Source of the DNA: Dictyostelium discoideum
Lineage: Eukaryota
Reading direction: 5' to 3'
DNA: 64,000 nt
NCBI GenBank assembly: GCA_000004695.1
Contig: CM000152.2
Location: forward strand, 1,728,001 to 1,792,000
Shown: in pieces, positions 1-30,911 of the stretch
Layout of the letters: the number at the start of each line of letters is the position of its first letter
How positions within the stretch are numbered: position 1 is the stretch's first letter
Translations under genes and position numbers: made by a program
Notes under the pieces: model-generated
Database searches by the model: none
Seen by the model: the letters and a program-made list of their open reading frames with translations, nothing else
What the model was told of the DNA's origin: nothing

Positions 1-294
1 TTTATATTATATTTATTAATAAAGTTTTTTTTTTGATTATTTTTGTGTGAATGTAGCGACTTTTATAGATTTTTTTAATTTTATTAAAAAAAAAAAAAAA
101 AAAAAAAATTTGAAAAAAAAAAAAAAAATATTTAATTTTTATTTTTTTTTTAATTATTATTATTTTTTCATTTTTTTTTTTTTGTTTTTTTATTTTATTT
201 TATTTTTTTTAAAAATTCAACACACACAAAATTTTAACTATGCATTCTTTCAATTTAAACAAATAATTTTTTAAAAATAGATAATATAGATAAA

Positions 295-19298: not shown

Positions 19299-23183
<3,885 letters not shown>

Positions 23184-23732: not shown

Positions 23733-24215
23733 TTATAATAAAAGTTCGTATTTGACTGGTTTGACTTCAACGAATTCAGTGTTTCTTGGGTTGACAAAGA
23801 AACCGTCCTTTGGTGCAGCTGGGTTACGTCTAACATCGACCCATTTACCGGCTTTCTTGGCTTCAACGACAGCTTTTTTGTTTTCTTGGATACGTTTTAA
23901 GTGAGCAGCCATGGAGTTTGATGGTTTGACGTGTTCAGTTCTGACGTGGATTTTCTTGGCAATGATTCTTGGACCAACACGTTTGTTGATGATGACACCA
24001 ACAGCACGTGGAGTAACATTCCAAACACGACCGGTACGACCGTGGTAGAATTTGTGTGGCATACCTTTGTGTACATTACCGGTGGCTTTGATATCAACGT
24101 AATCACCTAAACGGAAAGTTCTTAAGAAGGTGGTGGTTTGTAAGAGACCATGGTTTCTGAAACCACGAGAGAACAAGTATCTGGTACGAGCACGGAGACC
24201 GAATGAGTGAGGCAT
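23733..24215 (-). CDS. rpl21: 60S ribosomal protein L21e, 160 aa, single exon
   Basis: The translation MPHSFGLRARTRYLFSRGFRNHG...GMPHKFYHGRTGRVWNVT...KRIQENKK matches the eL21 family along its whole length. GC-enriched highly-expressed codon usage (cgt, aag, acc). Confidence 0.9.
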   Translation of the reverse strand: MPHSFGLRARTRYLFSRGFRNHGLLQTTTFLRTFRLGDYVDIKATGNVHKGMPHKFYHGRTGRVWNVTPRAVGVIINKRVGPRIIAKKIHVRTEHVKPSNSMAAHLKRIQENKKAVVEAKKAGKWVDVRRNPAAPKDGFFVNPRNTEFVEVKPVKYELLL

Positions 24216-25570: not shown

Positions 25571-26173
25571 TTATTTAAAATGTTTATCAGTAGCTTCTTT
25601 AATTTTATCAAATTCTCTTAGACCTCTATAAGGTTTGGTTTCTCCTTCATCAAAACTATTATAAAAAAAAAAAAAAAGTTAGAAATTTAAAATTTGAATA
25701 AAAAAAAAAAAAAAAATTTAAAGCCAAAACTTACAAAACTAAAGATGGATAACCTGTAATATTATATTTTTTACAAATTGAGTCATCCCCTTCACAATGA
25801 ACTTGCGCCACTTTAATTTTTGAATTTTCAATGTCGCTGTTGTAATGTTGAGCTAGATTTTCAAGTACAGGTTGAAATTTTTTACAATGTCCACTCCATT
25901 TTACACCACTTTTTTAAAATTTATAATTATAAGGTTTTAAATAATTTAATAAATTAAATAATAAATTAAATAATAAATTAATAAATTAATAAATAAAAAA
26001 ATAAATAAAAAATTAACATAATTTAATTCATACAATTTAACTAACCAATTTCCATTTAGGATTAAATCTAAATTATCATTTGTAATAACAATAATTTGGG
26101 AAGGTTGGTTTTGGGAAAAGGCAACACAAAATAATAAAAAAAATAAAATAAATAAAGTAAATATTTTTTTCAT
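25571..26173 (-). CDS. Secreted single-domain PDI/thioredoxin-fold protein with SGHC motif, tandem copy 1, 132 aa; exons (minus) 26173..26034, 25908..25735, 25655..25571
   Basis: Signal peptide MKKIFTLFILFFLLFCVAFS. Thioredoxin/PDI a-domain signature ...FGVKWSGHCKKFQPVLENLAQHY...VAQVHCEGDDSICKKYNITGYPSLVFFDEG...YRG. The first active-site Cys is replaced by Ser (WSGHC rather than WCGHC). Two phase-2 introns (GTATGA and GTAAGT donors). Confidence 0.7.
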
Positions 26174-26248
26174 TCTTTTTAATTTTATTATATTGTTTTT
26201 TTTAGATTTCTAAAATTTTTTTTAAAAAACAAAAGAAAAAACCAAAGG

Positions 26249-26279
<31 letters not shown>

Positions 26280-26599
26280 ATTATTGATACTGTATAAGTT
26301 GTTAAAAAAAGTGAGTCATCTTTTTTTTCTGAAAAAAAAAAAATTATATAAAAAAAAACAATCAACAAAGACAAAAATATTTTGATTTTTTTGAAAATTC
26401 ATAAAATATTTACATCGTTCCAAGTTGTATATATCAGTGTGGTGTGTTTGAAATAATATTTTTTATTTTTTTTTTTTATTTTTTTTTTTATTTTTTTTAT
26501 TTTTTTTTTTTAATTCTTCCAAATTTCAATAAAGAATAATAAATAAATAAAAAAAAAAAAAAAAAAAATATAAGATTATGACCAAAATGAAACAATTCT

Positions 26600-27012
26600 T
26601 TATTTAAAATGTTTATCAATAGCCTCTTTAAAATTTTCAAATTGTCTTGGGCCTGTATAATGTTTGATTTGGCCTTCATTAAAACTATAAAAAAAAAAAA
26701 AAAAAGTTAGAAATTTAAAATTTAAAATATTTGAATAAAAAAAAATATATTAAAAAGTTAAAACTTACAAAACTAAAGATGGATAACCTGTAATATTATA
26801 TTTTTTACAAATTGAGTTATCCTCTTCACAATGAACTTGCGCCACTTTAACTTTTGAATTCTCATTGTCACTGTTGTAATGTTGAGCTAGATTTTCAAGT
26901 ACAGGTTGTAATTTTTTACAATGTAAACTCCATGCTGCACCACTTTTTTAAAAATTTATAATTATAAGATTTTAAATAATTCAATAGATTAAAAATAAAT
27001 TAATTAAAAATT

Positions 27013-27052
<40 letters not shown>

Positions 27053-27268
27053 TAAATAAAATAAATTAATTAATAAAAAAAACAATAAATTAATAAATAA
27101 AAAAATAAATTAAAAATTAACATAAATTAATACATACAATTTAACTAACCAATTTCCGGTTAAGAGTAAATCTAAATTTTCATTTGTAATAACGATTATT
27201 TTGGAAGGTTGGTTTTGGGAAAAAGCAACACAAAATAATAAAAAAAATAAAGTAAATATTTTTTGCAT
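26600..27268 (-). CDS. Secreted PDI/thioredoxin-fold protein with S-x-x-C motif (WSLHC), tandem copy 2, 129 aa; exons (minus) 27268..27138, 26942..26769, 26684..26600
   Basis: Paralog of copy 1 with identical exon structure (exon 2 is 174 nt, exon 3 is 85 nt). MQKIFTLFFLLFCVAFS signal peptide. AAWSLHCKKLQPVLENLAQHYNSDNENSKVKVAQVHCEEDNSICKKYNITGYPSLV. Confidence 0.7.
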
Positions 27269-27343
27269 TGTTTTTAATTTTATTATATTGTTTTTTTTAG
27301 ATTTCTAAAATTTTTTCTAAAAAACAAAAGAAAAAACCAAAGG

Positions 27344-27388
<45 letters not shown>

Positions 27389-27614
27389 ATTATTGATTAA
27401 TACTTTGTAAGTTGTCAGAAAAAGTGAGTCATCTTTTTTTTTTTTTCTGAAAAAAAAAAAAAAAAAAAAAAAAAAACCATAACAAAGAAAAAACTATTTT
27501 TGATTTTTTTGAAACTACATAATATTTACATCGTTCCAAGTTGCATATATCAGTGTGGTGTGTTTGAAATAATATTTTTTATTTTTTTTTTTTTATTTCT
27601 TTATTTTTTTTTTT

Positions 27615-28344
27615 TTAATTCTCCCAAATTTCAATAAAGAGATATGCACTTTCAAATTTATAATAATAAATAAATATTTTTTTTTTAAAAAAAAAATATA
27701 TAAGATTATGACTAAAACGAAACAATTCTTTATTTAAATGTTTATCAATAGCCTCTTTAAAATTTTCAAATAGTCTTGGGCCTCTATAATGTTTGATTTC
27801 GCCTTCATCAAAACTGAAAAAAAAAAAAATATAGAAAAAGTTAAAACTTACAAAACTAAAGATGGATAACCTATAATATTATATTTTATACAAATTGATT
27901 CATACTCTTCACAATGAACTTGCGCCACTTTAACTTTTGAATTCTCATTATCACTGTTGTAATGTTGAGCTAGATTTTCAAGTACAGGTTGTAATTTTTT
28001 ACAATGTCCACTCCATCCTGCACCACTTTTTTAAAAATTTATAATTATAAGGTTTTAAATAATTCAATAAATTAAAATAAATAAAAAAAACAAAAGATTA
28101 ATAAATGAATAAATAATTAAATAATTAAATAAATTAATAAATAAAAAAACAATAAATTAATAAATAAAAAAATAAATTAAAAATTAACATAATTTTAGAC
28201 ATACAATTTAACTAACCAATTTCCGTTTAAGATTAAATCTAAATTATCATTTGTAATAACAATTATATTGGAAGGTTGGTTTTGGGAAAAAGCAACACAA
28301 AGTAACAAAAAAAATAAAATAAATAAAGTAAATATTTTTTTAAT
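27615..28344 (-). pseudogene. Tandem copy 3 of the PDI/thioredoxin-fold gene, apparently degenerate: start codon changed (ATT where copies 1 and 2 have ATG) and a 1-nt deletion in the last codons causes a frameshifted extended tail
   Basis: Exons at 28344..28205, 28025..27852 and 27813..27730 are collinear with copies 1 and 2 (GAGWSGHCKKLQ... conserved). Plus-strand ttatttaaatg at 27730 lacks one a relative to ttatttaaaatg in copies 1 and 2, so HFK-stop becomes HLNKELFRFS... with the stop at 27615. The codon aligned to the initiator reads att. Confidence 0.5.
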
Positions 28345-29139
28345 TGTTTTTAATTTTAATTTATTGTTTTTTAAAAAAAAAAAAAAAGAGAAAAAAAAAA
28401 AAAAAATTATCACTAATACTTCCTTAAAAAATGTTATTCATCTTTTAAGGCACCCCATATTTTACTCATTAAAATACAAAAAAATATAACTAATTTTTGT
28501 TTTTTGAAGTCATATATATATTTACATTGTTCCAAGTTGTTAAGGTGTGGCTGAAATTATTTTTTTTTTTTTTTTTAATTCTCCCAAATTTCAATAATGA
28601 GCGATATACTTTCTGATTTACAATATCAATATTTAAATATTTTTTTTTAAAAGTAAAATAAAATAAAGTAATTTATTTATTTAATATTACTTTTAAAAAA
28701 AATAAAAAAAATTATTTAAATACTTATTCTTTTTTTTTTTGATTTTTTTGATTTTTTTTTTTTTTTAATATTGTTTGGAAAACTGAATAATAATTCTTTT
28801 TTGTGTTTGAGTAGGGAAGAAAAAAAATTCCTTTACTTTATAAAATATTCTTAAATTTAACAAGGCTAGGCCGCCACCTGCTTTAATTAATCCCTAATTA
28901 TTATTTCTCAAATTTTTAAGATAGTTTTTTTTTTCTTTTTTTTTTTTTTAACAAAATTTATTCTAACAAACCCTCAAACATTATAATATAATTTTTTAGT
29001 AAAAAAAATTCAACAATAAACTATTTTAAATCTATTTTTTTTTAACATATATTACAAATAATTTTTTATTTATTGTTTAGTAAACTTTAAAAATCTTTTT
29101 GGTATTTTTTATTTTTATAAAATTATATAAATTTTTAAT

Positions 29140-29267
29140 TTAATTCCATTTTGATTTTGGAATGGCTTGTGGGATTGAAGCCATAGTAGCAATACCACAT
29201 CTATAAAGGTGAAGTTAAAATAAAAATTAAAAAAAATTTAAATAAATGATTAGTTAGTAACTCTATC

Positions 29268-29302
<35 letters not shown>

Positions 29303-30579
29303 TTTTTTTTTTTTTAATATATTATGTGTACTTACTGATTATCCTTATCTTTACTCATTAAAATGTAACCATTAATACCCCAGTCAAGACCCCATGAGTT
29401 TTTAACGATCCAATAGTTACCATCAGTTGGGTAATCACCAGAGTTACTATTACCACCATTTGATGAACCTGAGAATGAACTTGAACCAGAGGCTGAACCT
29501 GAACCAGAGACGGAACCTGAACCTGAACCTGTACCAGCACCAGTGAAACTATTGGAACCTTGAGATTGAGATGATTGTGACCAACTGTTTGAATCTTGTG
29601 ATGATTGAGATTGAGATGATTGTGACCAACTGTTTGAATCTTGTGATTGTGATGATTCTGACCAATTGTTATTTGATGATTGTGATTGAGAACCAGCAGA
29701 TTGTGATTGAGAACCAGATGAACCACTACCGAAACCAACAGCTAAGACACCGTGATCCAATTGAGTTGAAGAGCAAGCTGGTTCATTGTAGATACCAGAT
29801 GAATAAAATTGGAATGATGGTTGAGATGCATCAATAGCAACTGAGGTTGGACCTTGAGTAACTTTGGCAGCTAAATCTGATTCTGAACCAGAGGTAACGT
29901 TAACGTATGATGATAATTCAGCACCAATGTTACTTGGGTTGTATTTACATTTTTCAGTGTTGGCAGTGAATGGGTAACTGCTTTCAGTATCAATACCTCC
30001 GTTATTGATGATGTATTCGAAAGCTAAGGTCATTAAACCACCTTCACAACCGTTGTTACCGTATGAACCTGAACAATCGATTAATTGTTGTTCAGAGACT
30101 GATGTTAAATCTGAATCACCATTGGCAATGTATTGAGCACCTTCAGTGGCACCAGTTGCTGAGAATGACCAACAACCACCACATTCACCTTGATTTTTGA
30201 TTGGGGTGACAGCACCTTTAGCTCTCCAATCGACGGAATTAGCTTGGACACCACCAAATACTTTTTCAGATGGAGTCATTTCGAGTGATGATGCATCGAA
30301 TGGGGTACCTAAATAGGTGGCTCTGTATTCTTCGTTGGTGATATCAGCGAAAACATTTAAACCTAAAACGGTTTCACTACCTTTGGTATTCCATTCATTG
30401 ATGTAATCCATATTGGCTTTGAAGATATTGAAACGACCATTGAACTCTTCTGATGAATAATGTCTTTGGTGAGCAATCATCCAATTGGTGAAAGCATTTC
30501 TGTATTGGAGTTCAGATAATTGTTGTTTAGCAGTGGCAACACTAACTAATAAAACACATAAAGCAGATAAAACTTTCAT
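29140..30579 (-). CDS. Papain-family cysteine proteinase with Ser-rich insertion domain, paralog of the gene at 12048 (cprD/cprE/cprG family), 434 aa; exons (minus) 30579..29336 and 29200..29140
   Basis: N-terminal 280 aa are about 90% identical to the 12048 gene (same signal peptide and same catalytic Cys/His/Asn motifs). The S/Q/N/W-rich insert ([29 protein letters not shown]...) differs in repeat content. Same phase-2 GTAAGT donor after ...KDNQ. A 135-nt intron is followed by a last exon encoding (Q)[19 protein letters not shown]. Confidence 0.85.
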
Positions 30580-30911
30580 TTTTAATTTATTTATTTATTT
30601 ATTTTGAAAAATATTAATAAAGATTTGAATAATTGAAAAAAAAAGAAAAAAAATTCTCCTTTTATAATGTTTTGAAAATAAAAAAAAAAAAAAAAGATAT
30701 ATAAGAAAAAAAAAGAAAAAAAAAAAAAAGTTAATGGAAAAGAAAAAAAAAAAGTGAAAGGAAAAATAAAATTTTAAATCCTATTGAAAATTTAGTTTTG
30801 TAAAATTTAATAAGAATTTTAAAGACACATCATAAATGATATGATATCCAAAAAAGATATTTTTTTTTTTCGACCTCGAAAAGTAAACAAAAAACTTTTT
30901 TTAATTTTTTT

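Follow-up and report, generated by a model that had tools for sequence, protein, structure and literature searches.

In a 64,000-nucleotide (nt) stretch of the Dictyostelium discoideum genome (assembly GCA_000004695.1, contig CM000152.2, positions 1,728,001 to 1,792,000; hereafter the window, in whose positions all coordinates below are given unless another locus is named), three small genes lie head to tail on the minus strand between 25571 and 28344. Each encodes a putative signal peptide followed by one protein disulfide isomerase (PDI) a-type thioredoxin domain, in which the attacking cysteine of the active site has been replaced by serine. We think it probable that this array represents a young family of single-domain thioredoxin-fold proteins, restricted to the D. 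discoideum clade, which arose by partial duplication of a gene for an endoplasmic reticulum (ER) membrane protein, DDB_G0293378, and whose products likely serve as non-catalytic, monothiol binders.

The array and its parent gene

The original prediction described a tandem triplet on the minus strand, and three direct repeats are indeed found there, with start-to-start distances of 1095 and 1076 nt; the peptide that it quoted is the product of the copy called c1 here. Each unit is a three-exon gene whose introns begin with GT and end with AG. The three copies are as follows:

25571..26173, minus strand: c1, intact gene, 132 amino acids (exons 26173-26034, 25908-25735, 25655-25571)
26600..27268, minus strand: c2, intact gene, 129 amino acids (exons 27268-27138, 26942-26769, 26684-26600)
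27615..28344, minus strand: c3, pseudogene with the site W-S-G-H-C (exons 28344-28205, 28025-27852, 27813-27615)

The c1 product has the active site W-S-G-H-C and a CX6C pair (C85/C92), and is identical to the NCBI entry KAM9949225.1, which is named only as a hypothetical protein. That of c2 has W-S-L-H-C and is shortened by a 9-nt in-frame deletion within the signal peptide; for this exact protein there was no entry in the protein collection searched.

The nearest protein with a CGHC site is a dictyostelid protein of ~410 amino acids, represented by DICPUDRAFT_93483 in D. purpureum and by DDB_G0293378 (417 amino acids) in D. discoideum. The latter is an AX4 "thioredoxin domain-containing protein", with a Trx and a Thioredoxin_6 domain, a hydrophobic segment towards the C-terminus and KEKDQ as its last residues. 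The c1 product is 54% identical to it over residues 1-119, signal peptide included (LLVCVAFS). When the exon structure of the parent is read in D. purpureum (L010) and D. discoideum (L011), the two introns of the family are seen to have identical positions and phases there: exon 1 ends in the same codon phase after GNWLV(E/K), exon 2 has 174 nt and exon 3 has 27 codons in family and parent alike, and the TAA stop of the family falls exactly at the donor of parent intron 3 (aag followed by GTAAat, vs aaa TAA aag). Since identity extends through the signal peptide, the introns agree in position and phase, and the stop coincides with the intron-3 donor, the family is a partial duplicate (promoter plus exons 1-3) of DDB_G0293378, the gene for a PDI-like type-I membrane protein of the ER. 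The promoter and the first three exons, which encode the signal peptide and the catalytic a domain, were copied as far as the start of intron 3, where the old donor GTAA is now read as a TAA stop. The products would still enter the ER, but they are without the non-catalytic region of Thioredoxin_6 type, the anchor in the membrane and the KEKDQ (KXKXX-type) retrieval signal.

What the family still shares with its D. discoideum parent is the CX6C pair, the GYP loop with its cis-proline, the proline five residues after the second cysteine (Pro+5) and a TGACTCA sequence upstream. It differs in having WS(G/L/A)HC and LVKF and in ending after exon 3, whereas the parent has WCGHC, the glutamate of LVEF, and everything that lies beyond. 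Three models of the parent gene in other strains or species (P0208, P0211 and P0212) contain an odd insert after ..VNCVDN(Q/A)S.., which looks like a retained or mis-spliced intron 2, so that these are probably annotation errors and not real isoforms.

Close relatives were observed only in strains of D. discoideum, in D. citrinum and in D. dimigraforme (in an exhaustive HMMER search and two word-indexed searches), all of them "hypothetical protein" entries of recent assemblies. After the last family member there is a step in score, from 181 bits down to 79, and a cysteine stands at the attacking position (W-C-x-x-C, mostly WCGHC) in the outgroup sequences listed in the alignment. The protein searches returned no family member from AX4 or UniProt, though the database includes AX4 proteins, and none was found for D. 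firmibasis or D. purpureum in their annotated proteomes, which is where these two species were searched.

The family occupies two loci. In addition to the array (locus A), which lies beside the gene for ribosomal protein eL21, a single-copy locus B is situated between an HSP20 gene and a PQ-loop gene, with synteny between L004 of D. discoideum and L003 of D. citrinum; the spacing of locus tags suggests that the D. dimigraforme gene is its orthologue. Some annotated models at locus B are truncated at the N-terminus, the true start encoding a signal peptide. No locus A is present beside eL21 in D. citrinum (L008) or D. dimigraforme (L009). Locus B, common to the three species, is the older one, and locus A arose within D. 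discoideum. In D. dimigraforme the gene order upstream of eL21 is no longer syntenic with that of D. discoideum, and a DDE transposase gene (DDE_Tnp_1 / DDE_Tnp_4) lies nearby, at L009 16166-17497. The D. citrinum orthologue (L003 10560-10700) has no stop after ..KYFK and is read through into a hydrophobic tail (EKEFHSIPYFGYTLTYSLMFIFFIIFFF..), and a second D. citrinum strain ends in ..NEKEFH. The C-terminus of the family is unstable.

Copy number at locus A varies between strains of D. discoideum, with three copies both in the window and in L001 (assembled independently from a near-identical strain), two in L005, one in L002, and one accompanied by a stop-containing fragment in L007. The birth and death of copies that had been proposed for the array is thus visible between strains. 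Identities among c1, c2 and c3 form a mosaic when compared segment by segment, a pattern compatible with either unequal exchange or conversion between the copies; unequal crossing-over at locus A may have left one, two or three copies per strain, the first copy in the window strain being dead. That copy, c3, is a pseudogene, as shown by the following lesions. Its start codon has changed from ATG to ATT at 28344-28342 (aaaaacaATTaaaaaaata vs aaaaa[c/g]aATG in the other copies). A 1-nt deletion near 27738-27735 (catttaaataa vs cattttaaataa in the other copies) has removed the stop, so that the frame continues to 27615 and adds ~40 low-complexity residues. Its promoter has lost ~45 nt, downstream of a degenerate upstream motif, and its intron 2 is only 38 nt long. 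The first two lesions had been noticed before; reading the strand confirmed both, and both recur in L001. It had also been supposed that c3 might start at an upstream ATG at 28413, but the codon there is GTG, and no in-frame ATG exists anywhere in its reading frame. Relative to c2, c3 has 16 non-synonymous and 2 synonymous differences (a ratio of non-synonymous to synonymous substitution rates, dN/dS, of 1.9). The region upstream of c3 matches that upstream of the first copy in L002 and L005, and those first copies are intact; the death of c3 is therefore strain-specific. Its C-terminal extension (..NKELFRFSHNL..) resembles, at the DNA level, the read-through tail of D. citrinum. The decayed fragment in L007 (GYCGNFQKLE*NFAQHHNSDVQNSKV; L007 7316-7393, GCA_054859235.1), upstream of the single intact copy there, is a second, independent pseudogenisation at locus A.

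Fold, active site and probable function

That the domain is of the PDI a type, within the thioredoxin superfamily, is agreed upon by sequence profiles, structure-database matches, the predicted fold and structural search. Pfam PF00085 (Thioredoxin) scores 65.7, 71.9 and 68.2 bits for c1, c2 and c3, against a curated cut-off of 23.5, with E-values of ~1e-18 to 1e-20 over the three products (4e-18 for c1, 5e-20 for c2). The AlphaFold (AF2) model has a pLDDT of 89 and the order beta-alpha-beta-alpha-beta-alpha-beta-beta-alpha, with strands at 28-30, 42-48, 78-84, 102-107 and 110-114 and helices at 32-39, 53-69, 89-94 and 120-131. Foldseek gave a probability of 1.00 against many thioredoxin and PDI chains, the top matches being the thioredoxin domains of ERp46 (TM ~0.9, root-mean-square deviation 1.3-1.4 A). 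Among the 60 PDB sequence matches listed, the best were TXNDC5/ERp46, followed by ERdj5 and PDIA3/4/6; these sequence matches and the top 50 fold matches, taken together, are ERp46/TXNDC5, ERdj5, PDIA3/4/6 and TMX1. The N-terminus consists of MKK, a stretch of 16 hydrophobic residues whose mean Kyte-Doolittle value is 3.05, and A-F-S followed by Q. By its composition it is a putative signal peptide; it is homologous to that of the parent and forms a low-pLDDT helix in the AF2 model. The absence of a KDEL-type ending, noted at the outset, holds for both c1 and c2, which end in ..DKHFK; neither carries a signal for retention in the ER or retrieval to it, be it K/HDEL or KKXX/KXKXX on a membrane anchor, and neither has a hydrophobic segment beyond the signal peptide.

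The serine at the attacking position, also part of the original prediction, is encoded by AGT in every copy and in all genomes examined. Its presence in at least six independent genome assemblies rules out a sequencing error at this codon. All nine intact copies, from three species, have WS(G/L/A)HC. The resolving cysteine (Cys55) is invariant in the family, and so is Lys46, which replaces the buried glutamate of LVEF (giving LVKF), a residue that the parent keeps. P60, which is Pro+5, and G99-Y100-P101, which by sequence is the cis-proline loop, are likewise invariant, so that the family retains the second cysteine, the following His/Lys, Pro+5, the cis-proline loop and the CX6C pair. What the buried glutamate, Pro+5, the cis-proline and CX6C each do has been described (PMC4249923). 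If C85 and C92 pair as they do in CX6C domains, one cysteine of the product is left unpaired.

The family changes rapidly. Between D. discoideum and D. citrinum, the flanking genes have dS values of 0.30-0.40 and dN values of 0.02-0.085, and the locus-B gene has a dS of 0.46 and a dN of 0.23. Over the same comparison the a region of the parent is 96.9% identical vs 60.9% for the family orthologues, and the family evolves roughly 13 times faster than its parent. Pairwise dN/dS within the family is 0.4-0.8, below 1 in three contrasts (p ~0.02-0.04) and not significantly so in the c1-c2 comparison. One may consider an alternative explanation, in which the whole family consists of non-functional relics, a truncated duplicate of DDB_G0293378 that was deprived of its nucleophile, has been drifting since then, and whose tandem copies are neutral by-products of unequal crossing-over. 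Such drift could account for these ratios (and for the value of 1.9 between c3 and c2), for exons that are hardly more conserved between tandem copies than introns are (92-95% vs 86-94% identity), for the variable copy number and the decayed copies (c3 and the L007 fragment), for the unstable C-terminus in D. citrinum, and for the lack of an AX4 or UniProt protein among those returned. On the other hand, the nine intact copies in three species have kept an open frame and canonical splice sites with in-frame indels only, at a dS of ~0.4-0.5, and in the three contrasts dN/dS is below 1. Conservation is also uneven along the protein: in the active-site window 41-56, 11 of 16 positions are invariant (G41, N42, W43, L44, K46, G48, W51, S52, H54, C55 and K56), vs 27 of 96 elsewhere (p = 0.003). 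Moreover, the copy that is genuinely dead looks different, c3 being without a start codon, the normal stop and an intact promoter motif. That the surface evolves fast and the modified active site stays frozen speaks against simple decay, and we consider it unlikely that all members of the family are relics.

The role that we regard as most likely, by analogy with what is known of PDI enzymology, is that of a non-catalytic binder. The change of the attacking cysteine to serine and that of the buried general base from glutamate to lysine were fixed early, and both have been kept in every intact copy. Serine-x-x-cysteine (SXXC) sites and mutants are inactive in oxidation and isomerisation, and recombinant EtPDIL, a single-domain SXXC protein of Eimeria tenella, shows no isomerase activity (PMC4059736, PMC4894388), so that, with the nucleophile lost, standard thiol-disulfide exchange should be impossible for these proteins. 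As to localisation, expression and biochemical role, we infer from the lost anchor and retrieval signal that the products are soluble and would leave the ER, by a secreted or endolysosomal route, and that they may act as "pseudo-oxidoreductases" whose conserved active-site face would still bind clients with cysteines; Cys55 might form one mixed disulfide, as described for PDILT. Several observations weigh against this interpretation. The AX4 reference yields no protein match, the entries being only those hypothetical proteins of recent assemblies. The high dN/dS implies that constraint is weak, and the similarity of exon and intron identities between tandem copies points the same way. The second cysteine is normally buried in thioredoxin folds, which makes the reactivity of Cys55 speculative. 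Finally, exit from the ER is deduced here from absent signals, and the unrelated Dictyostelium Dd-PDI is retained in the ER without an HDEL.

The case of Dd-PDI bears on another alternative, namely that the proteins remain in the ER and there either act as chaperones without redox activity or compete with the parent enzyme (in the manner of PDILT and ERp29, or of a dominant-negative a domain). Both the signal peptide and the promoter motif were inherited from the gene of an ER protein, and the SXXC protein that has been studied most, PDILT, is a chaperone of the ER. We nevertheless find this rather unlikely, considering that HDEL/KDEL, the membrane anchor and KXKXX are all missing, that core folding factors of the ER do not usually evolve so very fast or vary in copy number (conservation of the parent is 97%), and that there is no b'-type substrate-binding domain, the domain which carries most of the chaperone binding in PDI and PDILT (PMC4894388).

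The invariance of Ser52, Cys55 and Lys46 could instead mean that S-x-H-C and Lys46 form a new catalytic centre, with Cys55 as a lone reactive thiolate of peroxidase-like or thiol-transferase activity. On general chemical grounds the cysteine nearby should have a lower pKa with a lysine in place of the buried glutamate, and peroxiredoxins have T/S-x-x-C at the equivalent place. However, the proline of the peroxiredoxin motif P-x-x-x-T/S-x-x-C is absent (position C-7 is Gly48), neither D. citrinum nor D. dimigraforme conserves the arginine of Y-x-G-x-R, and no match to Prx or AhpC rose above the Pfam cut-offs. A peroxiredoxin-like protein was rejected for the missing proline and the unconserved arginine, and a new catalyst of any such kind seems very improbable to us.

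A bolder reading, which we would call speculative and improbable as it stands, is that the invariant Ser52, Cys55 and Lys46 make up a re-engineered active site, and not a dead one, in a secreted, rapidly diversifying and copy-variable monothiol effector, which would covalently capture or sense extracellular thiol or disulfide targets (e.g. those of bacteria or of other amoebae) and whose evolution would be driven by conflict. If this were true, the family would give a fresh example, open to dating, of a folding catalyst of the ER turned into a pseudo-enzyme through truncation at an exon boundary.

Upstream elements and surroundings of the array

Two kinds of conserved sequence, together with a further spacer block, occur upstream of the copies:

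26311..26320, minus strand: GATGACTCAC, candidate cis-element (AP-1/GCN4-like, with the core TGACTCA), 139-145 nt before the c1 ATG
27424..27433, minus strand: GATGACTCAC, the same element, 157-163 nt upstream of the c2 ATG
28433..28442, minus strand: GATGAATAAC, degenerate counterpart at c3 with two core changes, the motif reading GATGAATAA
26406..26458, minus strand: 48-nt block upstream of c1 (exact at 26411-26458), on the plus strand TACATCGTTCCAAGTTGTATATATCAGTGTGGTGTGTTTGAAATAATA
27522..27574, minus strand: the same block upstream of c2 (48 nt at 27527-27574), with 1 mismatch
28518..28557, minus strand: diverged block upstream of c3, of which only the 22-nt core CAACTTGGAACAATGTAAATAT is left (28518-28539)
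26512..26530, minus strand: further conserved spacer block ATTGAAATTTGG(G/A)AGAATT, also at 27617-27635 and 28577-28595

The original prediction saw a candidate promoter element shared by all three units in the 48-nt block, which on the gene strand of c1 contains a run, CACACCACAC, and a core, CAACTTGGAACGATGTAAATAT. Its presence before c1 and c2 stands, since the sequence is exact in the one and has a single mismatch in the other, but c3 retains only the 22-nt core, and the block was not found at locus B or at the parent gene. As it is exact in only two spacers, we rejected it as a family-wide promoter element; it is specific to the array, and its conservation is no more than recent duplication explains. 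The diverged, c3-type block is the version that precedes the first copy in strains L002 and L005.

A better candidate cis-element is GATGA(C/G)TCA, which is found 98-170 nt upstream of the ATG in c1 and c2 (window and L001), L002, both copies of L005, L004 and L003 (four sites), with positions at locus B of L003 9834-9918 and L004 9823-9829. In D. discoideum the parent gene, too, has the motif ~135 nt upstream (L011 1364-1370). TGASTCA is not significantly enriched in the window (6 observed vs 4.15 expected), so the case for the motif rests on its conserved position only. It is displaced in L007 and missing at that position upstream of the D. purpureum parent. We found nothing relevant in the literature on TGACTCA in Dictyostelium.

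The array is flanked by two genes that are not part of the family:

23733..24215, minus strand: gene for ribosomal protein eL21, the downstream neighbour, used as an anchor for retrieving the same locus in other genomes
29332..30579, minus strand: gene for a Ser/Gly-rich papain-type cysteine proteinase, the upstream neighbour (the span given is the first exon, followed by an intron and the last exon)

The ribosomal protein genes of the window have products identical to D. discoideum eS19 and eL21. The window is ~22% G+C, with AT-rich introns, and is 99.6-99.8% identical to GCA_054883475.1, the differences being mostly homopolymer indels; compared with L001, too, most differences are length changes of homopolymer T runs. 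Homopolymers of 25-43 T (gene strand) occur in promoter regions of the copies as well as in their intron 1 (26249-26277, 27016-27040, 27344-27386 and 27450-27476), and a perfect (AT)165 microsatellite at 21073-21402, followed by a T47 run, lies between open reading frames of the CBF-domain gene region.

Several family models in the new assemblies are wrong. In the annotation of GCA_054883475.1 one model of 603 amino acids merges the cysteine proteinase gene with c3 and c2 (window 27600-30600; L001 5612-9579; L006 3660-7627). Elsewhere P0002 is a fusion of two copies, and P0005 and P0155 are truncated at the N-terminus.

Relation to known proteins and significance

The original prediction likened these proteins to AGR2 and ERp18. 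As far as architecture goes, a signal peptide with one thioredoxin-like domain, the resemblance stands, but kinship does not: AGR2 has CXXS, i.e. it has kept the nucleophile and lost the resolving cysteine, which is the opposite change, whereas ERp18 has CXXC. Neither is among the 60 sequence matches listed or the top 50 fold matches, and the actual relative is the a domain of DDB_G0293378. Both AGR2 and ERp18 have ER-retrieval endings. ERp46/TXNDC5 provides the closest solved structures, by sequence (E 6e-44 summed) as well as by fold, and shares the V-x-C-x6-C pair, but it carries three CGHC domains that are catalytic and ends in a KDEL-type signal.

PDI-family proteins with SXXC are already known (PDILT, TMX2, EtPDIL and CnoX), so the array is not a new kind of system. 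Human testis PDILT (SKQS / SKKC) resembles the family in that its a' domain has SXXC, it lacks oxidoreductase activity, and its remaining cysteine takes part in disulfide-dependent interactions (PMC4894388, PMC4059736). It differs in being an ER-resident protein of four domains (a-b-b'-a') with a b' substrate-binding domain; it is not orthologous, and its SXXC is independent. TMX2 (SNDC) and EtPDIL each have a single thioredoxin domain with SXXC, but TMX2 is a membrane protein and EtPDIL has no signal peptide and ~216 amino acids; nothing in the sequences links the family specifically to either, and neither appears among the 60 PDB sequence matches listed or the top 50 fold matches. Because the family derives from a CGHC parent within the dictyostelids, the SXXC of the PDILT a' domain, TMX2, EtPDIL and the bacterial CnoX/YbbN is a shared character and not a sign of common descent. 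Our literature search found nothing relevant on DDB_G0293378 or on a Dictyostelium SXXC thioredoxin. What is new here is the origin from DDB_G0293378 at an exon boundary, the older second locus, the variation in copy number between strains, the Glu to Lys change fixed together with the loss of the nucleophile, and the lack of a match in AX4.

In this family the Ser-x-x-Cys motif has an independent origin that is very young and can be dated. The parent gene persists, the truncation can be read at the nucleotide level, and natural alleles with one to three copies, as well as a freshly dead copy, are available in a genetically tractable organism. Together these provide a setting in which to ask what changes when the domain of an ER oxidoreductase becomes a soluble monothiol protein.

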